A stretch of 63,528 bases of DNA, filler included, from Asterionella formosa (GCA_002256025.1; 20 parts of 20 records of this genome joined end to end with filler, not necessarily neighbours in it), one strand, 5' to 3'. Shown: positions 30,942 to 54,978, numbered from the whole stretch's first letter. Program-made: numbers and translations. The notes: generated from the sequence alone by a model not told the origin.

Positions 30942-31069
30942 TAACGGTGTATATAATATATTTTCTAAATAGTTGATAATTAGAACATCGCCAATTGATC
31001 GTCTCAAAACCTGAAAAGGGAGGCTGATGAGTCTGTCAACATGCATGGCCAACTCATCATAAACCCGTG

Positions 31070-31878: not shown

Positions 31879-32288
31879 ACAGGACAAAGGAAGTGTACAG
31901 TAATATTCCATTCCTTTATGTATGGGGTACCAGGTAACTGGTACCAGGTATACCGGTATACTACCCGGTGGAAGGTAAAACCGTCTTTACAGGACCTTTC
32001 TGGTGGTAAAAGACGGTTCTTACTTTTATATAGGAAAACGCGGATAAATTGCTCATTTATCGCACCTTGCGATGAAAAACAATGAAAGTACCTGAGTACC
32101 AGATACGGCACCGTTAACTGAACTTGTACACCATACCGGTATGCACTTGTCAATGTACATACAGTGCAAGCCTACAGGTACATAGATAGGATGTGTATAG
32201 CAAGTAACAACATGTACTTCATCGACGACCGCTTTATGTCACCCTGTTCTCCCGTTGATGCTCCCAACCATATCATTCTTTATTCAGC

Positions 32289-32624
32289 ATGTCAGCAATA
32301 GCAACAGCGTTCCGGTTGATGGCTCGATCGTCGTTGGCGCAATCATTTCAGACAACTCGGACAATGGCGAAGAAGAAAGCTGGAGGATCCACCAGCAACG
32401 GCCGCGACTCAGCTGGACGTCGTCTTGGCATTAAGCTCTATCCAGGCCTTGAAGCCAAAGCAGGCGCTATTATCATTCGGCAACGCGGCACGAAATTTCG
32501 CGTTGGCGAGGGCGTGGGAATGGGAAAAGACCACACCATTTTTGCATTGGGACCAGGAATCGTCAAATTTACCAGATATGAATGGAACAAGAAACGTAAC
32601 GTAGTCCATGTGATTCCTGCTTAG
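32289..32624 (+). CDS. MRPL27: mitochondrial ribosomal protein L27 (bL27m)
   Basis: [34 protein letters not shown] and [11 protein letters not shown], preceded by an Arg/Ser/Thr-rich presequence. Confidence 0.95.
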
Positions 32625-33874
32625 ATCATCAGGGAATTTACATCTCCCCGAGGTCATGGAATGAGGTAGCCTAAAGAAAAAATGACTTATAGTGACCTGG
32701 GTTCTTGTGAACAGTACGCATTTCCCTTCATTTGTTTTCTCCATGATGCCAGAAGTAGAAATTGCTATCAATCAGGGGAATTGATGGTATTGTTAGTCGG
32801 CATAATCAAGGACATCAAGACAAGACTGATTCCAAGTCACTTCACTCTACTTCTAGCTTCAATAAAACCTTTAAATAAACTTGTAAAATCAATGTTTTGG
32901 GACATCACTGGTAATTTCAACGCCCAGCCTATATGACCTGGCCTTCTGCCGGCATGTCTATTTTTCACCCCTTGTTTGCAGAAGGAAAAATCCAATCGTG
33001 ATTCCCCAGAAAGGAACTACTAGTAGCCTATCTTGCATGTTTCTTGATATCTGCTTTTTTCCCATTAGCTTCAACAATGAGTACTCCCAGCAGCCAGCAG
33101 TAATCATTTTGATTGAGTTTTCTGCATAAACTTTCTCCATCTCCTTGGCATTCCCTTGCATCATCATACCCTGGCTAGTAGTACTACTGATGGCTCCACC
33201 ACTACTACCACTGGCTACCTTTCACTTTACTGGAACTGTGCCTCCAGCTCCACCCACTCATACTACTGCACACATCCTCTGGGCAGATGTACACTCATTC
33301 CAACCATGATGCAACTTTGTTGGCAGATTCAAAGGACCTTGAACATGGCTTGATCTTGTGGTAGTGCTGCCACTGTGCTCTTGACAGATCATCCACTCTG
33401 GAAAACCTTCTGCTCTAAAGAGGCAATCATCAAAATCAAAAAGAATTTTGTGATTACTAAGCTTCCAAAACTCTCATTCCAATTCCTCTGCCATTCATGA
33501 CTGGTACCACAAGTTCACCAGACTACATCCAGCATCCAGATTGACATGAGCCCTTTACTTCACTTCAAAAAGATACATGCTATCTGGCCTCATAATAGTC
33601 CTCTCCCACTTGATTTTGAAATTGGTAGTTTCATCCTATTGAAACTTCAATCAAAAAATGCACTTGACCTCTTCTAGCTAGTACCTTACCTAAGCTCTCA
33701 TTTCATAGCTATTCTGACAGCATGGATGGGTATTTCTTGTTGCATGCATCTCAGTTAGCCCATGCTGAGGATTACCTCCTCCATCTCTGTACTTGCTTCT
33801 CTACGCATACATAGACTTAGATTCTGCTGACCCTGTCAGTTCTGCCTCAGCTTTCTTGGCTTACTAAAGTAGTG

Positions 33875-34492
33875 CTATATAATTAAGTGTCCTGTATCAC
33901 TCTGTATATTTTTCTCGAGATGGCACCAAACACCTTAAAATGTTCTATTCATAGGCAAAGTAATGAGCTCTAATTCTCATTGAACTCCTAGGCACTGGTA
34001 TATAGCTATTTAGCTGACCTAATGCGATTCTTTTGTGCACGTAAAACACTTGAGTGTACCAGTAATGGTTGTGAACAGCCAGACAGAAGAATAATCCTGC
34101 ATCACGTCCTTTTTGCCTTGACCATGACAAAAATATCGAACATCTAAGAAAAAGTTAAGAACGACGACGCTAAGCAACTTGATACATATTTCAAGCACAC
34201 CATAGACAATCCAATCGTAAAAGAATATTTGTAAAAACAAAGATATTGGCAATGAAAATTGAAGTTGCTACTAGAACCGTGATGTCGTGTTTTTCTTGCA
34301 AGATGAAGAACTATCCCAAATTTGACTTTACAGAAAATGGTGACCATATTAATAAAGATTAGAAAGGAACGCGCCGTAGAACTAATGAAATTTACTTTCG
34401 AATGGTAAAAGGGAAATTTCATCATAGTCGTGGACCCCCCTGAAATAAAGGGAGTTTACATTCTTGGGGGTCCAGGACAATGAAACATACGG
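33875..34492. mobile_element. about 620-bp MITE-like element of the same TIR family as 19174
   Basis: Right TIR gggggtccaggacaatgaaacatacgg|TA at 34466-34494; degenerate left end ctatataattaagtgtcctg...tcgagatggcaccaaa aligns with 19174-19230. Confidence 0.6.
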
Positions 34493-37400
34493 TAGGCAGG
34501 GAAAGAAATGCAAACACTCCCAGTATACCAGCCATGAACTCTCTCCACTTTATTTAATCGTGAGCTTGATCTACATTCTTTTCCAATTCAGCTAGTACAG
34601 GTCAAACAGTTAAGGACCTTGCCCCTGATTCCACTGTCCCTCCTCATCCCCAATTTGTCATTTGATCTTCAACTTTCTAATTAAAACTGCGGTCCTGTAG
34701 ACGTAAACCTAGATTGGTGTAAACTTTGCTAGCGTTGTTAAAATAAACAGTACAAGGAATTCTTGGGTGATCATCCTTCCCAAAAATCATATATCAGTCG
34801 AACTATATTTTTTTTGTTTTTTAATGAACAATTATTTAACAAAACATCCAGTCACAAGAATAATATCCTGATGATAACATTTATGCACTTAAAAATTACG
34901 ACTCCAATATTGTGGCGACAGTTGAAAAATCCAATCGGAGTGACGTTTTGGTTAAGGATTGCTCGACGTTGGATGGGCCTTGTAAAGATTAAAACCATAG
35001 TCATGTACCTTATAAAATCAGGATTTACCATTAGATTTTTTACTATTTTTGATAGCCAGGCCTTTTTCAATTTTTGGGATAGTAAGAATTCCAAATAGAG
35101 ATAACTGAATCTTCTCTCCAGAAATGAGGTCCTTAAGCAAATATCTTAAAATAGAACATACCCCTAAGCCGGGAATCGGCAAACATTTGTAACTACGCAT
35201 ATGCAAATCGGTGAAAATGTTGGATGAACCTACTTTTATCTTGAACTATAATTATAGGTTGTACATTGCTAACGTGTGGATTGAGGCACACGATATAAAT
35301 GTTTTTGGTAAAATTTAGACCTCGAACTGCTAAAATGAAAGGTCTCTCTTGTCCACCAGAAAATCTTTGCCACCCTCCTCATTGAAGTTATTTGAGATGC
35401 ATGACTCATGCTTCTTTTAAGGATGTGCGTTGCAGCTGATCTGAATGCAGCTGATGGTGGTGATATAATCCTATTCCAGCATCTCGACAACATCACTGGT
35501 AACTGGTCCCACCGAATGTGTCATCTGCCACACTTGCTGCTTCTTCCCTCAGTTTGATGTATAGCTGAGCCTTCTGTTCTACATACCCTCTGTAGAATGG
35601 ATCGCTTACCGGTAATGATAATTTTGAATTGAATCATTTGACATTGTATTCAAACCAACCGGCCATATGGAGTACCGGAAGATTAAATTTTGTTCGTACC
35701 TAGTACCTAGTACCTGGTACTTGGTACTCCCTCTGTCCAAGAGTAGTTGCATCGATTCACCGGTACCACTGGTGTCTTAACTGTTCGCATATGAAGGATA
35801 ATGTAGCCAACATATCATCTTGCCATATATTCCGGAATAAATAAAAATATAATTCGAACTTGTACCGGTAGTCCTACATATGGATATGAAACCATGCAAA
35901 GGTTGAGATGCACAACATATCGATACCAGTACCTAATGGACCTACTCTGCCTAGCTACTAAACTAATCCAATAGAGCTGTCCAGAACCTCTTCACACAGT
36001 ATCATAAGTACAAAATACATGCATTGAGCATTGTCTAAAAATAGTAACATCATATACCAGGCATGAGAATATATTGCAGCGAGTGCCAGTATGTCATGAA
36101 ACCAACCCTTGATAAACTGTCGATTTCAATGATAATGCAAGAGATTTTCTTATTTGTCGATGTTCTTTTTAGTACACAAAAAGAGTCATTTAGAATTGAG
36201 TTAGGAAAATTTCTATCATTGATAGAAACGATTATTGATTTTCTAGATATTGAGTCAAAAAGGGTAGTCCTGAGTTCCTCGGACTAACTCAGCACACCAT
36301 TATGCATTTTCGGACACTTTTAGTATGAAAAAGTGTAGGGGACCTTCTGATGATGATATTATTGAATAAATTTATTACGCGCCTTAATGCTACTCTATTG
36401 TGGGCACTATCTTATAAAGACTTAGAAAATTCGGAGGAAATTAGTTTATTCGGCATAGTGAACAAGCCGAAGTTCCTTTCTGCAGTCTCTCACCATATCA
36501 ACTTCGGAGGCTATGCAGATTTGATCTATGTTTGTAAATATCACTCAGAGCCAGTCGATGTGAGCAATAGCCATCGTGTTGGGCCTAGTAACACTTTTTC
36601 ATCACTATTGACCACCCCAAAAATATCGCGCGCAGTATAACTTGTTTTTTGTTATTGATCATACATTCATTGTTATTGATCATAATTTCAACATTGCACC
36701 ATGATACTTTCCTGGTTAATATCCCCACTCTCTTTAATTTTCTAGTACAAAGCCTAATGTCGGCAGTCTCTAGCGCTGCTGCCGACACCCTGCTCCTCAT
36801 TCACCATGTCCTCTTTGGACACAGACGCTCCCTTCGCTTGCTCCTCCTCCACTTTTATTCTTGCTCAACTTGCTCTTTTAGACCTGCCGGTCACTCCACA
36901 GCAAAAATCATTCAAATCCGCCCATTCCATCCTGAGAAAACCAATTTCGCCTACTTTGCACACCTCTCACAGCGATTTCTTCACGCAAATGCTTATTCCT
37001 CCACCCATGACCTTCCTGTCTCTCTCTACCACTTCCAACTCTCTCATATTCACCTGGAAGACCGGTCAGTAGACTCTCTGGAAATCCCAAGGAACTGCTT
37101 TCCATTGCTGCTGCCACCCACACTCTCTGCCATCTCTCAGGCACCAAAGGCAACAGGAATAACACCTTTTCCTCTGATCTCTCTACTGCATTGTCAATTA
37201 TATAGTTGCAAAGAAATTTTTTTAGTACGCGCTGTAGAGAATCGACCATGGTCATGATCTATCTTACACAAATTAATTTTAATTGTTGGCACGCCAAAAA
37301 CTAAAGTAGTTAAAACAGTTGTTTTGTTATTGTTTGACAAACTTCTGCATTTATTCTCCTTTCTTGCTTATCATGATGTCCATCAAAGGAACAAAAAGAA

Positions 37401-37699
37401 ATGCTAAAATAATTGGTGATAACTTCTATCCAAAGACATACTGCAACAGCAATCATGATGAAATTTCTCTGAAAAAGCCCTCCTCTTCATGTCAATCAGA
37501 GCAGACGTTTTGGTAACTCCTTCAACGAAATCTCTCCTCATTTGTTAGTATGATGACATGGTCATGATTACAAGACTATGTAACAAATTAATGTTCTCTG
37601 AAAAGAAACGACCTGATCGTCAAGCAAGATCAAAATTCTGACAAATGTGTTCATTCCAAAGTTCATTTCCCGGTAACAAGATGATGCCGCCTTTTTATT

Positions 37700-38350
37700 C
37701 ACCCCTTCAAAGAAGAAGTGAGGATATAGCAAATATTGTGGAGGTACAGCTCGGACACCAATCAAAAGCATATCTCTCAATTTCACCTTAGCTGTGTTGT
37801 CGAAATTGAGGTTTGTCTCATTATTATTGAAAATGCTGCCTGGAGGAAGTTGAATTGTACAAATATGTTTGTTGATACTACAGGCGACATAATCCCTGAT
37901 TTTCTCCTCGTTAAGCCTTGTGTTCTGGGCAACATGAGTCACATAACAATAAATTTTAATCAAATTTTATAGTACCTCAAAGCTACCTAATAATTGCACT
38001 TGGACCCAAGTAAATGGACACAATTAGCTAGTACCAGTTTTATTTGTCCATGTGATACAACTTCACCTGTCTTTTTGTCAGCTGCCCCCCCTCCCAGAAC
38101 CCTAGGGACTACATGAAAAAGACAGGAGGTGGAGAATGCAGGAATCAAACCCGCCACTACAGAAGGTATGCTAACCACTAAGCCATTCCCCAACACGAGT
38201 CACATAACAGATGATGATCTGCTCTTCAAGTGCCTCCAGCAACACAAGCATGTTTGTTCCCTAGGGGCCTCTTCAGCTCAAAACTTAGCATTCTAGCTAG
38301 TAGTAGTACAGGTCCTATCTTGGAGCCATAACTGCTTAAAAATAACCTTC
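37700..38350 (-). pseudogene. pogo-family (DDE_1) transposase remnant interrupted by SINE copy C
   Basis: VTHVAQNT...PPGSIFNNNETNLNFD resembles the pogo THxAQ...NMDET block. Removing the SINE and one TSD gives a continuous EQIICYVTHVAQNT. Confidence 0.65.
37949..38190 (-). mobile_element. tRNA-derived SINE, full-length copy C
   Basis: Minus strand (G)GGGAATGGCTTAGTGGTTAGC...GGTTTGATTCCTGCATTCTCCA head, shared body and AT-rich tail. 19-bp TSD caaca(t/c)gagtcacataaca at 37930-37948 and 38191-38209. Confidence 0.88.
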
Positions 38351-38909
38351 AAGCCTTCAAAGTCAGCAGTAGCACTACTTTTGGGGAGTGGCCCAGGTGA
38401 GCACCTTTCTTCACCAACTTCTCCTGCCTCTGAATGAATAACTCGTTTTGAATTTTTCTTTCTGCCACCACTGGCATAGGTGTGCAATATACACTTCCAG
38501 CTCCTGACTGAATGGGCTGAACTGAATATGCTCAGGCAGCTGCCTTCTATGCAAAATGATAAGAACAGCCCTTTATGTGTGGACAGGACATTTTGGATTT
38601 CCCCGAATTCATACAAGAATGCTGTGTACCTGTTATGGTACCACTTGTGCCACCCCCTTCGGTGTCCATGATGATGATATATCGGTAGATGCATAATGTT
38701 GACAATGTAATCCATACTCCGTGCCATTTATAAATGTACATAGTCTAGTACATACAGACATACAGTATTTAAAAAATAGCTATATTGTACCGAGCATAAT
38801 AAGATATACGTAGGATGTCAAAAACGGTGTGCTTTCACAGCCATTATGTCGTGCAGTCAAATAATTATGTACCGGTATTGTTTGGCGGTGCTATGTAGCA
38901 GATGGTCCA

Positions 38910-38968
38910 GTAAAACACGTTTTAAACTTAAAAACGGTCAAGCTAAATATCTCGATTACCGGCCCTTT
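38910..38968 (+). repeat. dispersed repeat R5, copy 2
   Basis: Matches 31818-31878. Confidence 0.75.
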
Positions 38969-39189
38969 CTATGAAACCTATCATGAATGCTATGTATGAG
39001 TGGGTGACGAACAGACCAAATCTATTCCGTCCTAGTACTACAGTAGAAACTACGTATGTTCTCTGGTACCGGTACTAGATATTCAGTACCGATAAGTTCC
39101 CGAAATCCACATGTGGATTATCACAAATCACGAAGCAGTGAAAAAGTCTCTGTCCTGCATGCATCGTGCAGACAATCCTATTTATTACG

Positions 39190-39241
39190 GGTCGCTTCGA
39201 TCTCCCTTGATTAACGGTCGCTTCGATCTCCCTTGATTAAC
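39190..39241 (+). repeat. 26-bp perfect tandem duplication upstream of PP2A B'
   Basis: ggtcgcttcgatctcccttgattaac occurs twice. Confidence 0.95.
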
Positions 39242-39305
39242 GAACTTCATTATTCGACCCTTGCATTCATTCATTTTATCAATAAGAGAATAATCTTATT
39301 CAACG

Positions 39306-41871
39306 ATGCGTCTGATGAAGAAAAAGGATCCCAACAAGGGAAAGGTCAAGGTACGATCAATCAGGTTTACCCGAAGTTTTCTCTGTTGTCGTCGCAAGGT
39401 ATTTTTCGTATTCCGTGTTTGTTGCTAAGTCACGATTCCTCATGTATTCGAAACGCGTGCGCGCCTGCCCTCCTACCGGTAGTCTACGTCTGCCGCATCC
39501 GCGCCCAATTTAATACCATTGCTCATTGTCGTAGTATCGCATGCTTCCCTCCTCGACGAAGAGTGGCTCAGCCATGTCATCGTAAAACAGCTTCTTCATA
39601 ATGGCAACATCACGAATGTCTCCACATACTTCTGATAATGTCTCGTCTGGAGGGTCGTGGCCGCCTCGAGCAAGCCCTCTTCCAAAGATCGACATCTTGG
39701 CATGTCCACCGGCCGGTAGCGTTCGCGGAGCGAGGCGGCAACTGAAAGGATCATCGCCGTCAAAGTTTCCGATAAGAAGAGCATCTTTGCCTCATCATTG
39801 GAGCTGGGTTTGTTCACCCACTATGGCAAACGCTCACATTTACGACGAGGACGCCTTTCATGAATGTGCCAGTTTGTCTGCTGAAGGAATGGACGAGTTA
39901 ACGGCCGTCCAACTGTTTTACCGGCAAGAGCCTAGCTCGGGCTTTTCGGAAAGGCTCAGTGAAGCCTTTTCGAATGGAACCCTCTTTCCTTACGTCTGGT
40001 CGCTCGTATCTGAACCTCTGTCGATGGACGAGGAGTCTTCCGTCATGAGGACGGAAGCATTCGTAAAACCTCCATTTCAGCCCGTAGAATTTTTGCTTCC
40101 TCTCGGGCCTTATCCAGCTACAACTCGGCAGAGGCGGTCAAAGCGAAGACCCCGAAGGAGCATGGGCAGGCAGAATGTGGTGAATGTTGTGGCGGACCAC
40201 ATGCATATCGAAGTGCTCAGAGCATTACTGGTGTGTTTTTCATTTTCAAATCTTTAGTTTCGCATTTTATACTTTCGTCATGCAATCAACCCTCTGGTGT
40301 TTATGTTTTGCACTCACATTCACCTTCTTTCTAATTCCCAAAAGTCACAAAATGAAGATCCACCAGCTGCCGTTGCTCCTGCTCAGAACAAGCCCTCTGC
40401 CCCTCGAACATCCCGTCGCCCACCTGCCCCTGCGAATAGCATGTCCATACCTACTCCTGGTGGCGCGCCGGCTCAAAGTCAGAAGCCCAACCCTGTCGCT
40501 CCGGTCCGATCACCTCCTATCCGCCCCGTATCCTCTCCGCCTTCTGTTACTTCTGAGGACGTAGTCATGCAGACACTCGGGGCTGACCGTTCGGCCTTGA
40601 AGGAGCTTCCTGCCTTGAGAGAAGCTGCACCGGCGAAGCGGGAGGAGCTGTTTGTTATGAAACTTAAGCTCTGTAGTGTCATTTTCTCCTTTGATGACCC
40701 CACGACCGACAAGAGAGGCAAGGACATGAAGCGTCAGACCTTATTGGAGTTGGTGGACTATGTCAATACTCCTGCTGGTCAGAAGATTTTCACGGAAAGC
40801 GTCATGGGCGACTTGATGGCTTGCGTCTCAGCCAATGTCTGCCGGGCCTTGCCTCCAGCTACAGATGACTTTGATCCTGAAGAAGACGAGCCGGTGTTGG
40901 AACCTGCTTGGCCTCACCTTCAAGTTGCGTATGAGTTCTTTTTGAGATTCATTGTTTCTTCGGAAGTCAATGCAAAAGCTGCCAAAAAGTATGTCGACCA
41001 GAAGTTTTGCCTTCAATTGGTTGAACTCTTTGATTCGGAAGATCCACGTGAACGTGACTATCTGAAAACAATTCTTCACCGTATTTACGGAAAATTCATG
41101 AGCCACCGTTCATTTATCCGGCGGGCCATTTCAAATGTATTTTATAGATTTGTCTACGAAACGGAGCGTCACAATGGTATAGGTGAACTGTTGGAGATCC
41201 TTGGTTCAATTATCAACGGCTTTGCAATCCCACTCAAAAAGGAGCATCTTCAATTCTTGGTGCGCGCGTTGATTCCGCTTCACAAACCCAAGTGTGTTGC
41301 CTTGTACCACCAACAATTGTCTTACTGCATTATTCAATACGTTGAAAAGGATGCAGATACAGCAACTCCCATTTTGAATGGATTCTTCAAATGCTGGCCA
41401 TGGTCCTGCTCTAACAAGCAAGTCATGTTTTTGAATGAACTAGAAGAGATTCTTGAACTTCTCGGTGCCGATCAGCTGGCCCAAGTTTCTACCATGTTAT
41501 TTACGAACTTGGCCCGTTGCCTTGATTCGGACCATTTTCAAGTTGTTGAGCGTGCGTTGTTTTTGTGGAATAATGAACACCTGGTCAATTCTGGTTGTCT
41601 GTCTCGCCTGAATGCCCAGACTGTTCTTCCCATTATCTACGGGCCTCTCTACAAGAATTCTAGTGGTCACTGGAATGCCACTGTTGAAGGGTTGGCGCAG
41701 AATGTCTTAAAAATGTACATGGAGTACGATCTTGTGCTATACGATAAATGCACAGCTTCTTATTTCCGGGAAGAAGAGGAAGCGAAGAGAAAGTTGGAAG
41801 CGATTGCCGAGAAGTGGGAATCCTTTGAAAAGCTGGCAATCGCGAATCAAGCAATTATCATGGCCAAGTAA
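39306..41871 (+). CDS. protein phosphatase 2A regulatory subunit B' (B56 family)
   Basis: FDPEEDEPVLEPAWPHLQ, LFDSEDPRERDYLKTILHRIYGKF and HFQVVERAL motifs in exon 40345-41871. First exon inferred as 39306-39350 (MRLMKKKDPNKGKVK|gtacga); the 5' structure is uncertain. Confidence 0.92.
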
Positions 41872-42434
41872 GAACGCAAGAGCGACTGCAGTGTGAAGGC
41901 TTTATTTTTAATTTGGACTATTTATTCCAAAAGATGAATCGATAAGAATATAGGAAGAACATTGTTACCTTGATTTCGTGCCTATAGTTGCTTCCTCTGC
42001 CGTAGACGTCCTATTGCTGAGCCCCTTGGTCCCTTTTCAGCAAGGGCAAACATGAAGATCAGCATGAGTGAGGCAGAAAATAAGAATGGTATTGTTGGGA
42101 AAGCAAACCAATATACCACTAAAAACTCAAGGTGTGGCAAGCAAACGAGTGACTCAATCACTTTTAAGTGGTTACGGCAACAGTATTAAGCTCAATGGGT
42201 AATCAATACAATAAATGAGAGCCGAAACCAGTGTCTTTCTCGTTTATTCGTTGATGCAACTCAACCGAGCAAAGGATATGGACTTTGTACAATATTGCGC
42301 AGATCTTGAGGAACAAAGATGAATGAAAGTATTTGTTAACTAGTTTAGTCATAGACATAGTCGGTTTCCTAATCGTCGTCGGAGCTGCACTCAGCGAGTC
42401 GAAAGGATTCAAGCTCCTGCCTGAGTGCATCAAC

Positions 42435-43657
42435 TTAAGAAGTCCTTGAGGTTCTATCAGCGGTGGCTGGTATTAGGCCGAATGAAGGCTCGTTTTTCGA
42501 GGAATTGCCGGTTGATCGTGTTTGAATGGTATCTCTCGCGTTTGCATGTACTCCTTCGCTGCCTTCAAAATTCTGGTTCTCGCTGATACGATCAAACTGC
42601 CCAGGGTATATCTCGTCGAAGACAGTTTTAAATAACTCCTTAAGGTCGAGAAAAAAGCTGGGACAGGGTATGGTGAACCAAAGCTGACGGGTCGGGATGG
42701 CGATATGTATAGTTGATCGGACCGAAATAGGTTCACTTTCTTTTGTAATGAATGCCGAGAAATCAATTCTAGGTAGGATTGACTTAATCTCTGCAATTTC
42801 CACCATCCAAACGATTGATCCAGTTCGAAGTGTGGTTCTTGCCCATCCAATTAGTACAATGTAGTCTCTTCCTTGTCGAAGGCTTTGTTCATCTTGACAC
42901 CAACGTCGAAAGCTGCCGCCATGAACAGTTCCGAAGGAGAATTGCCTGTCAACTTTTTCCTTCGAGGCCTTTGATTTTATCTCAAAACAGCTTCCACACT
43001 TCATGCACTTCAAATCCTTCCATGAGTTGGAACTTCCTCCACACCAACGAAGAGATTCTCGCATCTTGCAATGGTAACAAGCTTCAGCATGAACAGCGTG
43101 AGATGCAACAATTGCTTCAAATGCATTTCCTTCCATGAAACCCTCACTTCTATACGTCAATTCAAAGCTTCGATCAGCCTCAATTATCCCACGCACTCGG
43201 TCAAAATCATCTTCCGCTATCCAGAATCGTTGTAATGGATCCAGGTCATGCCCTTGGAATCGAGCAAATTGCCGCTTTTTACCAATAAATTCTTTCTTGG
43301 TCCAGTTGTCTGTACCAATGTAGAAAGGGGGTTCAAAAAGAATTGTTCCTACGTCGGAGTGCTTAAGTTTATGCTTCAATGCATCAGTGCAGCATCGACT
43401 TAAGATTCGTATATCATCGCTACAGTGTGCGCCTTCAACCTCGAGCCGGAAGATCAACTTGATCGCTTCCAACATATCCTTAGGGATTGTTTGCCATTCG
43501 TCTGTTGCCTCAATTTCCTGCCGGTGGCATTGTTGAAAAAATTCGAGCTGACTGCCACAGGACAGGCGTGAAGGGTATAGTAGACACGAGAGAGTACAGT
43601 ACTACAGTTAAAACCGTACAGCCGCTACCAAGAGTTACCTGGGCTGACGTGGTAAAA
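42435..43657 (-). CDS. DpnI/Dam-replacing (DRP)-like Zn-finger PD-(D/E)xK nuclease domain protein; 5'-truncated by contig end, probable intron
   Basis: E...CYHC...DLKCMKCGSCFEIKSK...VHGGSF parallels DpnI E...CPNC...DFYCNHCSEEFELKSK...INDGAY. Frame is open well upstream of ATG 43475; putative GT-AG intron 43638-43548. Confidence 0.65.
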
Positions 43658-43950
43658 NNNNNNNNNNNNNNNNNNNNNNNNNNNNNNNNNNNNNNNNNNN
43701 NTTAATTAATTAANNNNNNNNNNNNNNNNNNNNNNNNNNNNNNNNNNNNNNNNNNNNAGGCGGTGGAGAGGCTCAAACTTCAATTGGAGCAGGATCAGGA
43801 AAAAATTAATAATGTAATGCCATATTGGTAAATACCAATATAGAATAGCTTGTACTGATGTACCATGCGTCGTACCATCCATACAAGCAAATGCAATTAT
43901 ACTGCTGCTGTGGCCGCTGCTGTTGCTTTCCCATCAGGCAACATACAGTA

Positions 43951-44030
43951 AATTCTACACACGAGTGTACCACAGGACGGAATCCAGAATCCGTTCGTAT
44001 GCCATCCTTGATGTCGAAATCGGCAGAACG
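43951..44030 (+). repeat. dispersed repeat R1, copy 2
   Basis: Matches 628-712. Confidence 0.8.
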
Positions 44031-44266
44031 GCGTGATAAATAAAATTTTTAATTTTTATCATACACATACATATATATGCCGGTATTATGTTCAAGGAGC
44101 ATGGTGATATGGCACACTACCTGTAACCTGGTACCCTGCAAGTTGCGGTCATTTTGCCGAAAATGGAACGCGGCGCCGGCAAGCACTCATATTTTTACTC
44201 CCCGCTGATATTACTTTCGCGCTGGCCAATATATTTCATTATTATCAAAATCTAATTTTTAAGAAT

Positions 44267-44637
44267 AATTTTCCGAACTTGCTACGAATTTTCCGAACTT
44301 TCTACGATTAGGGGGGTTTCCCCCCAATCACAATTTTGAGTTTCAAGACTCCTTATTCCAGAAATCTCCTAGTTTATGTGCATTTCTATTTCGGTATAAG
44401 GCCCCGTCTTACGGCGCCCGAATTACGAAGATTCAGTCGCCCGGATACCTGTTGGGCGTTTAATCTTCGTATTTTCGTCCCTTGCGGACTAAATAACTCG
44501 CAAATCCCCCCCGATTACGAAGATTAATCTTCGTTTGCCCGAATATTTCGAGGGTCATCCCCGATATTGACCCAATCTTCGTATTTTCTTGAACAATCTT
44601 CGTTTCCCGAAGATTAATCTTCGGGCAAACGAAGATT
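44267..44637. repeat. array of CGAAGATT/AATCTTCG inverted motifs and palindromes
   Basis: Palindromes acgaagattaatcttcgt (44517-44534) and cccgaagattaatcttcggg (44606-44625); half-sites near 44424, 44462, 44574, 44595 and 44629; tandem aattttccgaactt(g/t)ctacga at 44267-44308. Confidence 0.85.
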
Positions 44638-46401
44638 GTCTCCACCAATCAGAATGGCGGAAACAATATATAATCGTCATCACATATACTGATGATATAG
44701 CATTCGATACTTCGATACTTCGATACTTCTATTGTAGTATTATTGTCATTATTATTACTGTAGATATTATTAATATAATAATTCTTACTTTTAATATTTT
44801 TGTTTTATGATAATAATTTGTAACATGATGACTCCGCTGTTGAAATTGCGTCCCGAAGCACTCTATGCTTTCTTGTATCCTGTAAGGACACGTCAGGGAC
44901 CAAATAGGCTGTAGATATAACAACGATGTCTCCGTGATCGATTGTAATCGTTCCTAAGAGTTTTAATAGAATTATGGGTTTTTNNNNNNNNNNNNNNNNN
45001 NNNNNNNNNNNNNNNNNNNNNNNNNNNTTAATTAATTAANNNNNNNNNNNNNNNNNNNNNNNNNNNNNNNNNNNNNNNNNNNNATATTGCTCAAAATCCG
45101 CCCTCTTACCCATAAAGTAGCATCCAATGTGAGGGGCTTTTTCATGATCCCTTTTACTAAACTGTTGCAGCCTTTGGAGGCTTGTTGGCTTCAATATCTA
45201 AGTAAATATGAAATAGTATACCAGTAGTATTTCGAGTTGCACGGGAATCATAAATTTGTACATTTTGGTTGAACATCCTTGGGATATGAATGATCTCTGA
45301 TCGAAAATCCGTCCTAAAAATTAGTTGCTCGGCATTCGCGGCAATTCTTATGTTCAACACAGAAATGGGGACGAGTGCAGTACTGTTTCTACATAATTCG
45401 AAACACAATGATCCAGGGTACCTATGTATTACTTGTAAAAATCAACCCAGGTTGTATTTTTCTGTAGGCCTCAAGTATCGTTCTACTGCGGATGGTAAAA
45501 TACCTTGACGGTATTTTTCCGTACTTGATCACGAGAAAATACAGTATTGCACAACAAAGAAAAAATCAACCCGGTTGCATTGACGGTTGATTTTGTACTC
45601 CCTTTTTGGTTGAAAAATCAACTCTGATTAGTCGTAGAAAGGCCGGGATGTGCGTGATGATGCATAAAAATATGCACATGAAGCAAGATGGTGGTACCAG
45701 GTACCTGGTACTCAGCTTACCGGCAAGTTGCGGTAATTTTGCTAAACGAGCAGTATCCAAACTTTAGTGCTACATACGTCATCGTGCTGGCAATAGTGAT
45801 TCCAATTCCAAATTGATTCATGTGTATCTCTTTTGATTTTTCATTTAATAAACCACCTGACCACCTGGTTGTTTGGAATTGTCTGTAACTTTAATCTGAT
45901 TTAGCCTACAATATTGAGACCTAGGATTTTTTACTTATTCTGCCAGTTGGTACCATAGTAGCTAGGATTTGCTTAATGTTTGACCATTTTGATTAAAGTA
46001 TCAATTTCCCTTGATGTGTGATGTCATCATTTCAACCCAAATGCCATCACAGCCACATACCAACATAACACTGAAGTTAATGATGATACAACATACCGGT
46101 AAACATAAGGTGAAGTAAGCAATGTATTGCCCATGAAACATGCAATATATCATACACCTTTTGATGGATTCATATACAGGGTACCTGAGGTAGCCCACAT
46201 AGGCACTAGAATGTAATTATTTAGCTTAGATTATGCTTTTTCTATATTTAATACACTACAGTGTAGTCATTCTGAATGGCTGGAGAGCGAATATTGCATA
46301 ANNNNNNNNNNNNNNNNNNNNNNNNNNNNNNNNNNNNNNNNNNNNTTAATTAATTAANNNNNNNNNNNNNNNNNNNNNNNNNNNNNNNNNNNNNNNNNNN
46401 N

Positions 46402-47627
46402 AGCCCCAATGTGAACACTCGCGGAGGGTTCCCAACTCGGGGCACGGACAAAACAGGGATGTTGCCCTGGCCTTCGCCTTACATTCTCATGGTGGACCGA
46501 GGTGGGTGCACCTTTGTGAACAAGGTCAGGAACGCGCAAAGATCTGGTGCGGCCGGAGTCATCATTGCTGATAATACTTGTCTTTGCAGCGCTGTCGACT
46601 CCTGCACTTCCACGGCAGGCGTGGCATGTGAAACGCGGGAACCGATCATGGCAGACGATGGATCTGGCTCGGATATTTCGATTCCCTCCTTTCTCATTTT
46701 CAAGCAAGACGCTGACCCTATCATTGCCGAGATGAAGGCTAACCATGTGGTTCGTGTCGAGATGTCTTGGTCGCTTCCCAACCCTGATGCGCGGGTCGAG
46801 TACGAGCTTTGGACTACACCAACAGACACGGTTAGCCGTGAATTCCAGCGTCAGTTTAAGGAAGCTGCCATTGCTCTTGATAGCCATGCATACTTCACTC
46901 CTCACATGTACATTTATGACGGATTGAAGTCTGGTTGCCAGGACTCGAAAGGCGAGAACCAGTGCTACAACCTCTGTACCAACAACGGAAGGTACTGCGC
47001 CACTGACCCTGACAATGATTTGGACAAGGGCATTTCCGGGGCTGATGTTGTCAAGGAGAGCCTGCGTCGTCACTGTATTTGGAAACTCTACGGAGAAAAC
47101 AATGGAATTGGAAAGGAATGGTGGGACTATGTTAACGAGTTCATGTTTAGGTGTGACAATGAAATGTTCTTTGCCAACGACGAATGCGCCAATGATTGTT
47201 TTAGCCACGCCAATATTGAGCCAGGAAAGATCGATAGCTGCATGAAAGATTCCGGAGGACTAGAAGGTGACAACACAAATACCATATTGGAAGTTCAGCT
47301 TGCCGATAAAGATGCTAGCGGTGTTGTCATACTTCCTGCTGCCTACGTAAACTCTGTTCCAATTCGTGGATCACTCGAGTTTGCCACTATTTTTAAGGCC
47401 ATATGTGCCGGTTACGTCAAAGGATCCGAGCCCACTGTCTGCAAGAAATGCGCGGGTTGTGTGGACGAGTTCAAATGTGTCGTCGATGGCAAGTGCCCAG
47501 GGGCTCCCGGCGCAGTATCAGTGCCAGTCTTCGCTACCTCACTGGCTGTATTGGTTGCTGTCTTTTGCTGCTGCGGTTTAATCCAATGGAGCCGTAGTCA
47601 ATCACAGATGAGAAATCAAGTGAAGGG
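46402..47627 (+). CDS. vacuolar sorting receptor (BP-80/VSR family), internal fragment
   Basis: PA domain MVDRGGCTFVNKVRNAQRSGAAGVIIAD; RVEYELW, FTPHMY, CTNNGRYCATDPDNDLDKGISGADVVKESLRRHC; C-terminal TM helix. Open across the whole contig. Confidence 0.93.
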
Positions 47628-47727
47628 NNNNNNNNNNNNNNNNNNNNNNNNNNNNNNNNNNNNNNNNNNNNTTAATTAATTAANNNNNNNNNNNNNNNNN
47701 NNNNNNNNNNNNNNNNNNNNNNNNNNN

Positions 47728-48953
47728 TTTTACCAGCTTAGTAAAATAGTTGACAACGCTTTGGTGTTCCTGTGGTAAATTTCCCACATCAAAACTCTCT
47801 TTACTAAACCAGGCATTGTAGCAGAGCATCCCTTCGAATAGACCTTGAAAGTTTTGAATTTCTTGATTGGTCATACCACTTTCTTCTCGGCAGATTTTGA
47901 TTCCAGCATCACATGCCATGACAACACAGGCAATAAGCATCACTCCGATTCTTTCGTTAGCAGTTATTTTCGTTTTGCAACCATGAAAACCGAAATTGAA
48001 GGAACAACGAGGAAGGTCTCGGTCACTCTGGTGAAGGAAGAGTTTAGATATTTTGTTGAACAACTGGTCAAACAGTTTTCGATTGGAATTACCCTTTACT
48101 GTTTTGGGACGCCCGATCATATAAGAATATAGCTCCATGAGGTGATCCATTATTCCTTCTTGAATGGAATGGAGTTTTTCAGGAGGAACATGCCCATTAA
48201 CACCAAGAGGATCGCCACCAAAACACAACTGATACCAAAAGGGATAGATGAATCTTTGGCTCACCTTATCCAATAAATCTTTTATGCCCCGGATTAATAG
48301 TTCCTCGTAATCAATCTGACCTACAGGACTGCATTCATGAGATGGATTGTCCGTTTGATCAAACGGACAATCACATTCACGACACATTCTGGCAGTCTTT
48401 AGATATGTTTTCTTTCGTCCGCATTGTCCATCTAAACCTTCAGCATCACCGAGAATTAGACCAACCGGAACTTTCACATTAAGTGTAAATTGATTGCCTC
48501 CGAAATTGAAAATGTGTTTGAATCCACCAGCTTGTTGGACATTCTTGACCCCCTCAAGAATCACACCAAGGACAGCGTGATAATCGAATTCCTTTTGATC
48601 AGGGGTTAGGGACTGGATTTCAGATAGACTTGATGAGGTCAGCTTTGGGATCAATCCGATTGGCCGCCATGCATTGACCTTATTTCTTACATTGGTAGTA
48701 AAAATACCAAGTGACATTAGGACAGGCTCCATTGTGTACTTTCCTTTTTCAACCGTGTGTGTCTTGTCAATAAAGAACATTAGTGGAACAAGGAAGTCAT
48801 TTGGCTGAGAACATAAATATTCATGGGCATCTATCCACCAGGTACCAGTGTGAAATTCGGATCTGACACTGGTGGGTTGTGGTGCTTTACACGGATTGAC
48901 GAAATCAAATGACACATTTTGTGGTGACATTAGTGTGTCATTTGTCAAGAGAT
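47728..48953 (-). mobile_element. Plavaka-type transposase, internal fragment with open frame
   Basis: Uninterrupted frame across the contig, closely paralogous to about 28105-29298. Confidence 0.82.
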
Positions 48954-49053
48954 NNNNNNNNNNNNNNNNNNNNNNNNNNNNNNNNNNNNNNNNNNNNTTA
49001 ATTAATTAANNNNNNNNNNNNNNNNNNNNNNNNNNNNNNNNNNNNNNNNNNNN

Positions 49054-50279
49054 ACCTGGCCGGCCGGCAGGCCGCGCATGCCGGCGGTGCCGAGCGAGGC
49101 CAGGTCTTCCGTGGTCAGGGTCTTGATCTGATCAGTCGAGATGGCCGCCACCTGGCCCGAGCTCATGGCCCGGAACTGCGTGGTCGTGAAGGCATTCAAG
49201 TCATCGCTGGACAGGCCTTGGATCTGGCCGGCCGTCAGCGCATTGACCTGGGCGGTGCTGAGCGCGCCCAGCTGATCGGAGGCGAGGGCGCCCAACTGAT
49301 CCGTGGTCAGGTTGCGCAGGGCACTGGTGTTGATCGCCTGCAGGTCATCGGTGGCCAGCTTGGCCACCTGCTCGCTGCTCAGGCCGGCAATCTGCACGCT
49401 GTTCAGCGCTGCGGCTTGCTGGGTGGTCAGGGCGATCACCTGGTCGGTGGTCAAGGCGCCCACCTGGCCGGCCGTCAGACCGCGCAGGCCGCTGGTGCCG
49501 ATGGCAGCCACGTCCTCCGTGGTCAGGGTCTTGACCTGGTCGGTCGAGATGGCCGCGACCTGACCCGAGCTCATGGCGCGGAACTGGGCCGTGGTCAGGG
49601 CATTCAAATCGTCGCTGCTCAAGCCCGCGATCTGGCCGGCGGTCAAGGCATTGACCTGGGCCGTGCTCAGCGCGCCCAGCTGGTCAGAGCCCAGGGCGCC
49701 GAGCTGGTCGGTCGTCAGGTTGCGCAGGGCGCTGGTGTTGATGGCCTGCAGGTCATCGGTGGCCAGCTTGGCGATTTGGTCCGTGGTCAGGCCGGCAATC
49801 TGCACGCTGTTCAGCGCCGCGGCTTGCTGGGTGGTCAGCGCGATCACCTGGTCGGTGGTCAGGGCGCCGAGTTGGCCGGCGGTGAGGCCACGCAGGCCAC
49901 CGGTGCCGATGGAGGCCAGGTCTTCGGTGGTCAGGGTCTTGACTTGGTCGGTGGTGATGGCACCCACCTGGGCCGAGCTCATGGCGCGGAACTGCGCCGT
50001 GGTGAAGGCGTTCAGGTCATCGCTGGAGAGGTTCTGGATCTGGTTGGCCGTCATGGCATTGACCTGGGCGGTGGTCAGGGCGCCGAGCTGGTCGGAGGCC
50101 AGCGCGCCGAGTTGGTCGCTGTTGAGGTTGCGCAGGGCGCTGGTGTTGATGGCCTGCAGGTCGTCGGTGGCCAACTTGGCGATCTGATCGGTGCTCAGGC
50201 CGGAGACCTGCACACTGTTCAGCGCGGCGGCTTGCTGGGTGGTCAGGGCGACGATTTCATCGGTCGTCAGGGCGCCGAC
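49054..50279 (-). CDS. bacterial octapeptide-repeat protein fragment (LTTxQxxA type), high GC
   Basis: Open across the contig; strong GC3 bias; 8-aa repeats nested in a 408-bp (136-aa) higher-order unit (markers at 49393, 49801, 50209). Confidence 0.85.
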
Positions 50280-50379
50280 NNNNNNNNNNNNNNNNNNNNN
50301 NNNNNNNNNNNNNNNNNNNNNNNTTAATTAATTAANNNNNNNNNNNNNNNNNNNNNNNNNNNNNNNNNNNNNNNNNNNN

Positions 50380-51134
50380 TCCTTATTCGTTCTTAAAAAG
50401 AAACTGCTGTCTTTTTCAAAATCACTTAAACTCTGCATCGGTACTCCCAATTGCCAGATAGGATTAGCAGGGAAATGATCATAATAAAATGTATTGGCAT
50501 CTTTATAAAAATAATCTTGAACTGGTCTGAACTTAAATTTGGGTTTAATTTTAATGCCATCATTTTTCTGACCAGATAAGAAATTTATTAAATAACCCCA
50601 GATGGTTCTTTTGTGGTTGATGACATATCCTGCATCCCAGGTATTATCAATATAATGCCATTCATTGTTGATGTAAACTGCATTCCAGATATGTTCATCC
50701 ATGTAAAACTTATCATTGATATCGGTAAGAATCCCTTTTGTATATCCGGGAATCTCGGTAGAAACAATGCCTGCATGTTTGCATAACTCATTAAACAAAT
50801 CGGTATATCCTGTACAAATGGCTTTTCTTTTTTTTAGAATAGTTTTTATTGGTACCCTGCTAAAATCGTATTTCTGACCTTTACTAATATCATATTTGAT
50901 ATGATGTGTTATCCAGCAATGAATGGCTTCCACCTTATCCTTGTCATCATCTAAATCCTTCGTTAGTTGATTGGCTAATTTTTCGGCATTTCTACTGCTA
51001 AAATAGCCTACTTTTTTTGTGCATTTGTTTTGTGCATTTGATTGATTAATGCAGAAAATATTTAGAATGAGAATTAGAAGAAAAAGAAAAGGTATTCTTA
51101 ATTGAACTTGTTCTTGGGGGTAAAATGAATTCAT
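50380..51134 (-). CDS. bacterial secreted transglutaminase-like domain protein (3'-truncated)
   Basis: Cys-His-Asp triad in AICTGY, EHIWNAV and IDNTWDAG; Sec signal peptide ending SNA-Q; AT-rich, intronless, Bacteroidetes-like. Confidence 0.88.
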
Positions 51135-51236
51135 AGCTTAAAATTTGTTAAAAATAAGAGTCAGTTTTATCAAATGCAAATTGTATTGGCATGATTTTAA
51201 TTTAGCAATTATATTGACACAAATTAATTTGATGAA

Positions 51237-51604
51237 TCAATTCCCTTGAATTTTGTATTGTCTCATTTTTAAACAAGAAGGGCTGGGAACATTGATTTCT
51301 TGACCGATTTTTTTCAATAATCCACTTTTTTTATTTCTCCTAAATACCACTATGTTATTAGAAATCATATTGGCTACTAGGATATAATTTCCACTAGGGT
51401 CAATGCTGAAATTTCTTGGATGTTCACCACCTGTTTTTTGATGCCCTTTTAAATTTAATTTACCTTCTTTATTTATGGAAAAGATGGCAATGGTATTTTC
51501 ATCAATCCATCTATTGGAAGCATATAAAAATAAGCCATCTGAAGATACATGTATATCAGCAGAGCCATAAGTATCCTGTGTTTTTTTATAAGATTTGATA
51601 CTTT
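51237..51604 (-). CDS. pgl: 6-phosphogluconolactonase (YbhE/lactonase beta-propeller family), 3' part; absent from the ORF track
   Basis: Manual translation: SADIHVSSDGLFLYASNR...NTIAIFSI...TGGEHPRNFSIDPSGNYILVAN...SNNIVVFRRNKKSGLL...VPSPSCL*. Confidence 0.88.
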
Positions 51605-52696
51605 NNNNNNNNNNNNNNNNNNNNNNNNNNNNNNNNNNNNNNNNNNNNTTAATTAATTAANNNNNNNNNNNNNNNNNNNNNNNNNNNNNNNNNNNNNNNN
51701 NNNNACAAAGAATGATCGAAATTTGCCGCCGACAGCTGCGACGCAGAATGATAACGGCGAGGGCCGTGGATACAGGCGATTTCGGCGTAACGATGATTGA
51801 AATGCTCGCGATGCAGTAGAGAATGAAGAAGGTTGGTAAAAAAGAAAGGGAAGGACCATACTCGATGAACGCGGGTGCCAACAAAGTTGTGGCAAAGGTC
51901 TGTTAGGGGCTGTTCCAGCTGTTGGCATTTATGTTCTCCAGGCGATCGTTTGTCTTTCTGTTCGATCACAGTGAGGTGTGGAGGCGTTTCGATTTTTCAG
52001 TTGTCACATGCGCTTTAGATAATGGATGGAGGTGATGTGGTGTCGAGTAGTGCTGAACGGCATCAGTGGGAGGAGCTGGCTTATGTGTATAGACTTTCAA
52101 ATGTATTCCCAGCAAAAAAAGATCAACTATGAAATCGACTAATTCTCCTATCAAACAGGCGATGGGGAGAATACTGAACCTAATGTTGCAATTAGCGCTA
52201 TCGAAGGGTACCACATAAAAGAAGTAATCACAAAGCAATATCCAACACAACTTGTTGGATGGGAAAAACTCGACATATTCCAGACAAGGATTACCCACTC
52301 AAGGATGACCAAAATGCACGCTGGTCCTACAGGCCGCTAGTACCAGGCGCCTGCATGTCACAAGACAGACCTCGCAGGAATACACCTAACGGTTTCCCCG
52401 TTGAGCATACGCCTGAGACACCCTGACGTATACCCAGAATTTACCAGTCCCCCCACGGTGGTAACCATGCCAGATGCCACCATGAAAACGCTCCTCCATT
52501 GCAACAATAACGACCGGTTCTGCCAGTGATCTTCATCACTCAGTCCATTTTGGGCTGTACCATGTATTCCGATTCGCAACCCACTGTCTTCCTATTCCGT
52601 TTTGGAAAAGAACAGTAGTCATTGAACCTTGTTCTGTATCAAACATCACTTAATATCGCTCTCAAGCAATGTTCTAATAGATATAACAGAAACAAT

Positions 52697-52929
52697 TTAA
52701 TATAAAACACTCCTGGCAAAATGATAAAACGGCACCCCAGTGAGTATTTTCGTTAGACCATCAGAGCAGTTAGCCTTACCAGGTTCATGTGCAACACGCG
52801 CTGATCCGCATGCACAAGCCTCACAACACTTGTGATAAGCAATCGCATTATGCCTTTTATTTAACGTTGACTCAGGCCTAGTCACATTCTTTACCACACT
52901 TGCGTTGTCTCCAAACACATTTGCGGCAC
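52697..52929 (-). mobile_element. Ty1/copia (diatom CoDi-like) RNase H C-terminus
   Basis: FGDNASVVKNVTRPESTLNKRHNAIAYHKCCEA...NCSDGLTK. Confidence 0.88.
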
Positions 52930-54978
52930 NNNNNNNNNNNNNNNNNNNNNNNNNNNNNNNNNNNNNNNNNNNNTTAATTAATTAANNNNNNNNNNNNNNN
53001 NNNNNNNNNNNNNNNNNNNNNNNNNNNNNTTGCCTTCGCAATCATTGGAGTGGCAGTTGCATCATACTATTCGAAAGTAGAACTCGACAAAATTCTAGCT
53101 GAAGGGGACGATCAATCATCATCCTCGCCATTAACATTATGTACTGACCAAGATCAGGGTGGAAGACATAGTGGTCAACAGGAACAAGTTCTGGAGCATG
53201 TTTAAATGTAGTTGATTTATTTTGAAAGCTTGTTCGTTGTTTAGTTTTCCAGGAATAGTCTATGTGTTTCTGTATCTCTCTATTTGCCATCTCACCATTT
53301 CGACTCTTCAATTGAGGAATACTGTTCTGTTTCTTAGTAAAGTAATCAGAGTACGCAAAACTGTGTAATGCTGTACATTTGCTCAGTGTTGACTTTGAAC
53401 CAGAAATCGAAAATTTACAAATATATCTCAGTAAGGCCAGGTCTTACCAGAGATTCAAAATGGAAAAAATATGTTGCTTGGCTCAATTTTTTGTATCTCC
53501 AACATGTGGGTTACATGTTGCTTCCAGCTGCACTTTTTTGTTGCTCCAAAATGTGTATCTGCGTAATGATTTTGGGAGGAGGGATCAACATCAATTATTA
53601 TTTCAACTTGTTTGTAATTATGCTATTCAACATTTGAAAAATTACAATATTTACAAGTTGTGCTTGAAGTTTTGTTATTGTTACTTCGTCGCATGGCGTC
53701 ATTTAATTCTTCAGACAACGAAAGTTACTCTATACCTAGGAAACTAGATGACAAGTGGGTTGTAACTATCAATCCTACTTATTTACTCACTGATAGTGAA
53801 GGAAGATTGACGAAGTTTAGAAACATAGCCATTCACCAGATATCCCTACTACAACTTCAGCATGGCTGTCTGTCTGTGTTTTCTTTAAACTTTCCGGATA
53901 TAGAAATAAAACCAAGACCATAAACTCTACACTTATTATGAATTGGTTAAAGAAGTGTTGACCTTCGAGATATGATGGGGTACAACAAAAACCAGAAAAA
54001 TGAAACAGTGTCTGAAAAAAAGGAACTCCTGAATCATCAAAAACGCACATCAACAAGGAAGTCTCCTTGTTGTCTACTATCAAAGCAGTTTCCTGCCACC
54101 AGAAAAGATATTGCTACTGATTCTAGAACTGATTCCAAAATTATCGCCTTCTCAATTGTCTGCTTTTGCATATCCAGTGACTGCCAACATTTTAATAGAC
54201 AATGACTCTGAGAAATATCCCCAGATTGATAAAAATGGACAGCAACCTATTGCCNNNNNNNNNNNNNNNNNNNNNNNNNNNNNNNNNNNNNNNNNNNNTT
54301 AATTAATTAANNNNNNNNNNNNNNNNNNNNNNNNNNNNNNNNNNNNNNNNNNNNCAGGAACAAGCGTATGCTGTAAAAATATATATTCAGGAAGAGACAC
54401 AAGTCTAACAGCAATCGAATACAAATCTCCAGAAAAAGTACAAAATCGTTGGGGATGTTATCAAATGATCCACAGGGCAGCCACAATGTAGGGAATAAAA
54501 GACAGTTTTACACAAAGTAAAACGCATCTGAATGTTTCAACGAGTGGACTGTGATGATGGCTGATGCTTTTGGGACATGAAGAATTTCTAAACAAGATAC
54601 CGTATACATAGTACACCATTAGTATGATGTAGGAGCCTCAATACCGGTATTCTAAAATACCTGTAAATGCATTACTTGATATTATTTTAGTCTAGCATGA
54701 TGAGTCTACCGGTATTTAGTAATGCAGTACTGCTGGAATGTCCCAGGTATTACTCCTTCTTGTCTTGTTTCAATGGTCTATATAGCTAGTACCTGGTACT
54801 GGTAAACTAATATTCAAATCAGCCATGCAATTAATTGCGCGTGATGGTGGCAATATATATACCGGTATATATATTTTTATTATGATTAGCTGCGAGCATT
54901 TCATTTCTCGTTATCATGGCCTGATATTTAGTTATATTTTATTACAAAATACTCCGTTCACAACGAATTGTTGAAACC

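Follow-up and report, generated by a model that had tools for sequence, protein, structure and literature searches.

The window, a stretch of 63,528 nucleotides (filler included) from Asterionella formosa (GCA_002256025.1), consists of 20 contigs chained by N/TTAATTAATTAA spacers (19 spacers counted), one contig of which carries on its minus strand most of a gene for a protein (P0001) with a predicted DpnI-like PD-(D/E)xK nuclease domain, the subject of this report (Table 1). An earlier note on this DNA, made from the sequence alone, had proposed a eukaryotic DpnI-like restriction nuclease here, and the motif strings on which it drew sit where it placed them: GNAFEAIV begins at 43130 (minus strand; G158 of P0001); CYHC is followed by 17 residues and then DLKCMKCGSCFEIKSK, with C175 to K211 encoded by 43079-42969; and VHGGSF ends at 42909. 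The core reads C175-YH-C178, x17, D196-LK-C199-MK-C202-GSCF-E207-I-K209-SK.

The eight candidate catalytic and zinc-binding residues E162, C175, C178, D196, C199, C202, E207 and K209 (E43, C56, C59, D77, C80, C83, E88 and K90 in the numbering of the domain) are invariant in 101/101 aligned members of the family to which the protein belongs, so that the motif match, judged from these sequences, is far beyond chance. The D-x2-C-x2-C-x4-E-x-K-S-K spacing is the same as in verified proteins of the Pfam family PF06044 (alignment A3, described below). Both the DpnI-type spacing and the intactness of the candidate residues, as read in the earlier note, are thereby upheld, and the D/E/K residues, whose conservation among homologues it had left to be checked, are present throughout the 101 sequences.

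Table 1. Features of the DpnI-like gene and of the contig that carries it.
Feature	Positions	Strand	Size or score	Remarks
Open reading frame (ORF) P0001, stop to stop	42435-43601	-	388 codons	
Coding part inside the window	42438..43529	-	364 codons	residues 57-420 of P0024; intronless
N-terminal region, present part	43149..43529	-		LDP-x-x-RF motif (P122, R125, F126); from alignments
DpnI-like PD-(D/E)xK nuclease domain (predicted)	42663..43148	-		P0001 residues 152-313
Catalytic and zinc motif (predicted)	42969..43118	-		E162, C175-x2-C178, D196-x2-C199-x2-C202, E207-x-K209-S-K211
TAA stop, premature relative to the family	42435..42437	-		from ORF frame and homologue tails
C-terminal tail relic behind the stop	42369..42434	-		VDALRQELESFRLAECSSDDD then TAG
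RNA-library contig ends	42359..42375	-		X12 42375, X14 42362, X9 42359 (two studies)
High-copy block, outside the gene	43531..43657	.	127 nt	terminal 127 nt of the contig
Gene-bearing contig	23871-43657		19,787 bp	gene at right-hand end
B56 / PP2A B' gene	40258-41868	+	537.5 bits	
Ribosomal_L27 gene	32259-32621	+	109 bits	
Plavaka transposase fragment (PF18759)	29003-29614	-	32.8 bits	ORF; on the gene-bearing contig

Relationship to DpnI

According to PMC3424567, the active site of DpnI consists of E25, D53, E64 and K66, and its Zn2+ is bound by four cysteines, two of them between E25 and D53 and the other two in the hairpin between D53 and the ExK element; E162, D196, E207 and K209 of P0001 align to the four active-site residues. 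A degenerate DNA pattern of the motif retrieved 14 loci from IMG/VR, and all 12 proteins scanned from them pass the PF06044 gathering cut-off (26.7 bits): two phage proteins with the full DpnI + DpnI_C architecture (281 and 274 bits) and ten giant-virus proteins (28.9-42.8 bits). These 12 make up alignment A3, to which hhalign aligned the family (alignment A2) with 95.3% probability and an E-value of 2.2e-8 over 74 columns, pairing the helix Glu, both CxxC elements, the Asp, the ExKSK and the following Gly, and placing the motif on E25, C34, C37, D53, C56, C59, E64 and K66 of the PF06044 proteins.

A model of the domain built from the 101-sequence alignment (predicted local distance difference test, pLDDT, 90.4; predicted template-modelling score, pTM, 0.84) has only DpnI chains among its Foldseek matches at E<=1e-3 (4kyw_A, 1.6e-4; 4esj_B, 4e-4); in a second structure search, independent of Foldseek, the top 23 rows are all PD-(D/E)xK nucleases, judged by their titles; and PF06044 clusters head the ESM Atlas ranking by features (0.90) as well as that by structure (template-modelling score by row 0.67). 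The structure comparison that the earlier note had recommended thus returns the DpnI catalytic domain as the closest solved fold. Its companion suggestion, a comparison with the Pfam DRP family, turns out as expected only in part: 15/17 members of family alignment A1 match PF06044 (12.2-21.6 bits; E-values 1.9e-4 to 0.14), each time at model positions ~18-96, but all of these matches are sub-threshold, and the remaining two, the window protein with its twin, do not match; among 20 longer members, two match, at 21.0 and 22.3 bits.

R.DpnI of Streptococcus pneumoniae (PDB 4esj, 4kyw; PF06044 + PF17726) is a type IIM, Gm6ATC-dependent enzyme, from which the proteins considered here differ in their eukaryotic host, in an identity of only 16% with sub-cut-off Pfam scores, in longer spacers (E-to-Cys 13 versus 9, Cys-to-Asp 18 versus 16), in ~150 extra N-terminal and ~120 extra C-terminal residues, and in lacking the C-terminal winged-helix domain. 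That domain (PF17726, DpnI_C) is absent in the 17 + 20 members scanned, whereas the phage controls score 116.5 and 120.6 bits, as the earlier note had surmised when it described an extra N-terminal region and no evident winged helix. The N-terminal region at 43149..43529 matches no Pfam family or other known domain.

We conclude that the predicted core domain is genuinely, if distantly, homologous to the DpnI catalytic domain, and that the proteins form a sister family, outside PF06044 as delimited by Pfam, within what sequence and model place as the DpnI-like clade of the PD-(D/E)xK superfamily. High confidence attaches, taken together, to the homology and the fold, to the conservation of residues, to the structure of the gene and its diatom context, and to its presence in RNA libraries.

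A family of eukaryotic proteins

A word-index search returned 16 relatives at 27-41% identity in addition to a 100% twin, and an exhaustive profile search returned 351 representative clusters (50% identity) at E<=1e-3, of which 268 reach 1e-10 or better and 146 reach 1e-30 or better; the motif is found in 135/175 stored proteins, fragments included. Nearly all sources are metagenomes, metatranscriptomes or MMETSP; look-ups of 30 clusters yielded a single organism name, that of the diatom Ditylum brightwellii, whose UniRef 'Uncharacterized protein' is included in one cluster, while none of the 8 proteins returned by a profile word-index search was assigned to an organism. One member lies on a contig of 1.05 Mb. 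The 60-sequence full-length alignment contains invariant or near-invariant sites beyond the core, including an N-terminal Trp-Gly and LDP-x-x-RF; the family N-terminus follows the pattern SL-x-EWG ... H-x2-F and has no zf-CCHC match. None of the 20 longer members scanned (449-1194 aa) carries a fused Pfam domain.

Pfam, NCBIfam and PHROGs do not register the family; searches of Pfam, NCBIfam and PDB sequences with the window protein gave chance-level matches only, and the PADLOC model mREase_II, for a methyl-directed restriction enzyme, matches 2/4 members weakly. A search for related loci with A1 yielded a single short locus from a metagenome (L001) and none from IMG/VR, and a further ESM Atlas search found only phage-like clusters (0.89-0.90). 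Literature searches, with supplements not covered, returned no description of the family, which appears to be undescribed.

Viral and prokaryotic proteins with DpnI-type domains

A motif scan of prokaryotic genomes found at least 113 loci. Profile A3 matches 126/127 motif ORFs of the fetched loci (12 of these by construction), the miss being a 45-aa fragment; among the matches listed, it matches 112/113 prokaryotic ORFs, and the hidden Markov model (HMM) of the eukaryotic family gives at most 23.5 bits in 88/113 and no match in 25/113. The same HMM does not match the two phage proteins and scores 13.5-31.5 bits on the giant-virus proteins (12/12). Among the matches listed, no member of the eukaryotic family occurs in prokaryotes or in IMG/VR. 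The bacterial, archaeal and phage DpnI / Dam-replacing proteins (~255 aa) therefore share the motif and, among these matches, fall outside the eukaryotic family by its HMM.

The giant-virus proteins (GVMAG / IMG-VR) resemble the family in being built on a stand-alone DpnI-type domain without winged helix, and are the PF06044 subgroup nearest to it by HMM score. They differ in their length of 180-230 aa, in passing the PF06044 cut-off (10/10 scanned), in an N-terminal CCHC knuckle (C-x2-C-x3-H-x4-C) that the family lacks, in the absence of the family's N-terminal region and acidic tail, and in being viral rather than chromosomal. The combination of knuckle and PF06044 domain recurs in 12 giant-virus proteins (L002-L007, L009-L013, L015; motif at 1501-1548 of the locus).

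A quick, unrooted IQ-TREE tree was computed from 103 rows and 173 columns, comprising the window protein, the first 45 of 86 usable family segments, 10/12 giant-virus proteins (two near-duplicates omitted), the two phage proteins and the first 45 of 68 usable prokaryotic proteins. The family forms one clan (46/46 rows; Shimodaira-Hasegawa-like approximate likelihood-ratio test, SH-aLRT, 97) and the giant-virus proteins another (93), and a further branch separates family and giant viruses from bacteria and phages (SH-aLRT 97). As both of the former groups sit on long branches, their grouping may be due to long-branch attraction, and the tree, being unrooted, does not allow a donor to be named.

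Gene structure and the 5' end

P0024, a full-length cluster member of 420 aa that carries the family N-terminus, reads unbroken ...TLEVLGRHSS-CHRQEI... where the window reads ...LEFFQQ-CHRQEI. Contigs of four public runs (X2, X9, X12 and X14) were placed on window positions 42150-43662. The 4,443-nt DNA contig of X2 (depth 101.6) tracks the window to 43530 and then continues into other sequence; RNA-library contigs of X9 and X14 likewise leave the window exactly at 43530/43531; and the divergent continuation, reverse-complemented, encodes TLEVLGRHSS, the family N-terminus. Because the gene contigs depart at this point into the family N-terminus, ~56 N-terminal codons are missing from the window, which carries the 3' portion (87%) of a diatom nuclear gene that has no introns and is cut at the contig end.

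RNA-library and DNA contigs are colinear across 42359-43530 with zero splice joints in the four runs, and since no joint is reported in any placed contig, this interval contains no intron. The earlier note had proposed a 91-bp GT-AG intron at 43638-43548 (FTTSAQ/LEFFQQ) and had suggested RNA reads as a check. The GT and the AG exist, but the contigs diverge at 43530/43531 into the family N-terminus, P0024 continues differently, and the RNA-library contigs are unspliced and exit the window at 43530, so that the intron has to be withdrawn; so has the upper end then given to the gene (43657), positions 43531-43657 being outside it in all four runs examined.

The block at 43531-43657, which holds the exon formerly proposed and most of the intron, has a depth of 22,174-28,006 in X2, against 101.6 over the gene. 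It sits in separate RNA-library contigs (779, 917 and 598 nt) whose flanks are unlike the window on both sides; there is no second copy of the 127 nt elsewhere in the window and no Rfam match. The block stems either from a chimeric join in the assembly or from a repeat inserted in the source strain only. Its depth in this DNA run is ~200-fold higher than that of the gene.

RNA-library contigs from two studies cover the gene, one of the libraries being a poly-A library of what is probably the source sample. Such contigs are by themselves no proof of transcription, and parts of the gene without RNA-contig cover in one run (for example X12 at 43332-43530) carry no evidential weight. The RNA-library contigs end at 42359-42375, beyond which the DNA contig of X2 runs on, a weak hint that the transcript 3' end may lie there.

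Genomic context

The contig of the gene is supported, by sequence comparison of its B56 protein, as diatom, eukaryotic and of nuclear type: the best organism-named relatives of that protein are diatom proteins of Amphora coffeaeformis (95% identity) and Nitzschia (93%), followed by Stephanodiscus, Cyclotella and Cylindrotheca (91% each), as compared with 85% in Triparma and 73-75% in oomycetes. The G+C content of the DpnI-like gene is in line with its surroundings. The earlier note had placed the gene on one 19.8-kb contig with PP2A B' and MRPL27 and had regarded the context as diatom nuclear rather than bacterial; B56 and Ribosomal_L27 are indeed found on that contig, and the 91-95% identity of B56 to diatom proteins agrees with this origin.

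The premature stop and sequence differences

The cluster members P0002, P0018, P0021 and P0024 all end in ...DRTSRTS. The TAA behind this end lies within unspliced RNA-library contigs and shows no variant and no splice in the four runs; it is a fixed truncation in this lineage. The C-terminus of homologues is of the motif type IDELRSSL...V-x-x-W-x-D, and the frame behind the stop matches it except for the Trp, so that the C-terminal truncation raised as a caveat in the earlier note is real relative to the family, with a conserved tail behind the TAA. The copy in the window is thus truncated at both ends, for different reasons. Two ways of reading through the TAA were discarded. An alternative code in which TAA is sense is ruled out by the adjacent B56 gene, which itself terminates at a TAA read as a standard stop; and a mini-intron around the TAA would have to use the sole GT..AG there, which spans 16 nt, in a region across which the RNA-library contigs are colinear.

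The acidic tail with its one conserved Trp is kept in 33/60 full-length members and absent in 27/60. Tails of the type D/E-W-E/D-x-L/M/F (for example in P0003, P0046, P0071 and P0078) resemble a short linear interaction motif.

The coding part contains eight nucleotide differences among the four runs, all nonsynonymous (K369T, A355V, D218A, S191F, M156I, F155L, H81P and E45G; 0 synonymous), none of them at a catalytic or Cys residue. Because all eight are nonsynonymous, strong purifying selection in this species is excluded; by our own arithmetic the pattern has a probability of ~0.1 under neutrality, from a sample that is too small.

Predicted activity and alternative explanations

Homology, fold and invariance suggest that E162, D196, E207 and K209 form a Mg2+-dependent phosphodiesterase site, that C175, C178, C199 and C202 hold a structural Zn2+ as in DpnI, and that the protein would most likely cut double-stranded DNA. 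A Mg2+-dependent, zinc-stabilised endonuclease is the most likely of the activities predicted from sequence and model, and that the protein is a nuclease at all is probable, though well short of assured. DpnI-style targeting cannot work here because the winged-helix domain is missing; what the family has in its stead is a conserved N-terminal region of ~150 residues, joined in roughly half of its members by the acidic Trp tail.

The isolated catalytic domain of DpnI cuts Dam-methylated but not unmethylated DNA (PMC3424567), and solely because that domain is methyl- and sequence-specific do we propose a dependence on N6-methyladenine, which by analogy is conceivable yet doubtful for the present protein. 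Giant viruses methylate adenine widely (PMC7253447), and the one diatom tested in the work cited has 5-methylcytosine (5mC) only (10.1101/2024.10.28.620566), for which reason diatom self DNA may be safe. These two circumstances are compatible with a restriction-like role, and the evidence for it is circumstantial; as far as sequence can suggest, a role against foreign DNA would be rather unlikely. The full proposal, that diatoms and probably other protists have chromosomal, fast-evolving, modification-dependent restriction nucleases of the DpnI type that act on adenine-methylated foreign DNA while the host is spared, and that share ancestry with giant-virus DpnI-domain proteins, is put forward as speculative and, taken whole, distinctly unlikely.

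Several results weigh against this proposal or against the kinship on which it builds. PF06044 does not match the window protein even when E-values up to 10 are allowed; no member among the 17 + 20 scanned reaches the gathering cut-off; and DpnI was not among the PDB sequences retrieved with the family profiles A1 and A2. The hhalign alignment spans just the first 74 of ~160 domain columns, so the methyl-base-reading part of DpnI is not shown to be conserved, and the base-contacting half of the domain is not alignable to DpnI by that method. With an initial model of the full-length protein (pLDDT 66.2), the match to DpnI got no better than E 0.035, and the Atlas feature match shares 141/256 features, below the 170 typical of the same family. 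The family-conserved tail of this copy sits behind a stop, and the eight differences point to relaxed or diversifying selection, fitting decay as well as diversification. We know of no adenine-methylated double-stranded DNA virus of diatoms.

Some of these points lead to the view that the copy in this species is decaying, transcribed but no longer functional within a family that is itself functional. The TAA comes immediately ahead of a tail motif conserved in homologues, of which the remaining relic no longer has the Trp; all eight coding differences are nonsynonymous; and the 5' end is replaced by the high-copy block in the window assembly, which could be a real insertion in the strain. Yet 364 codons are open, the eight catalytic and Cys residues are intact and untouched by the differences, another assembly contains the full 420-aa ORF, RNA-library contigs of two studies cover the gene, 27/60 family members also do without the Trp tail, and eight differences are too few to carry the case at a neutral probability of ~0.1. 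Decay is possible, if questionable. An active but methylation-independent nuclease serving host DNA metabolism (repair, recombination, or organelle or programmed DNA degradation) and DpnI-like in scaffold only is also possible, though less likely than not. Such an enzyme would be expected in annotated reference genomes, yet a UniRef name attaches to only 1/44 family clusters whose sources were examined; the family is split into many small clusters that have diverged strongly; and its polymorphism here is all nonsynonymous, features more typical of conflict genes, although the argument is weak.

The affinity to giant viruses bears on another alternative, an endogenous giant-virus gene in the diatom genome without host function. 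Profile score and tree alike make proteins from giant-virus metagenome-assembled genomes the nearest ones in PF06044, the family HMM giving 13.5-31.5 bits for these against <=23.5 bits or none for the prokaryotic proteins listed; the bipartition of eukaryotic family plus giant viruses versus bacteria plus phages has SH-aLRT 97; and the nearest feature clusters in the Atlas are from Nucleocytoviricota. A viral element is improbable all the same: the flanking genes (B56, Ribosomal_L27) are cellular and the G+C content matches the surroundings; the viral proteins, at 180-230 aa with a CCHC knuckle, are without the family's N- and C-terminal regions; neither family patterns nor the motif scan found a family member in IMG/VR; and the family is a clan of its own (46/46 rows, SH-aLRT 97), the grouping with giant viruses being possibly long-branch attraction. 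A non-catalytic reader of modified bases (PUA-like, of the YTH or EVE type) or a zinc-ribbon binder is considered very improbable, even though the Foldseek matches that follow DpnI include PH1033 at E 1.2e-3 and numerous YTH domains (E 3e-3 to 3e-2, probability 0.8-0.99), and the window protein has weak zinc-ribbon matches in Pfam. The reading that we prefer remains that of a DpnI-like protein whose predicted endonuclease activity is probable and whose direction against modified foreign DNA would be rather unlikely.

Significance

DpnI-type enzymes are generally regarded as prokaryotic. The 2012 census of the PD-(D/E)xK superfamily enters PF06044 under Bacteria, with a patchy distribution (PMC3424549). 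The present family is large, has a eukaryotic chromosomal context, and keeps the entire predicted DpnI active and zinc site in a new architecture. If active, its members would be candidates for restriction-like immunity or controlled DNA degradation in eukaryotes and a possible source of new modification-dependent nucleases; if the restriction reading were true, they would constitute a eukaryotic counterpart of type IIM/IV restriction and one of the parties in an arms race over methylation. The connection with DpnI-domain proteins of giant viruses offers a concrete case of host-virus gene exchange to test.

Other observations on the window

An Rfam scan of 41800-43662 returned nothing above threshold. 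Apart from two contigs of ~19.8 kb, the window consists of 18 contigs of ~1.2 kb each (19890-23770 and 43758-63528); their G+C content ranges from 0.32 to 0.54, and neighbours in the window may stem from different organisms.

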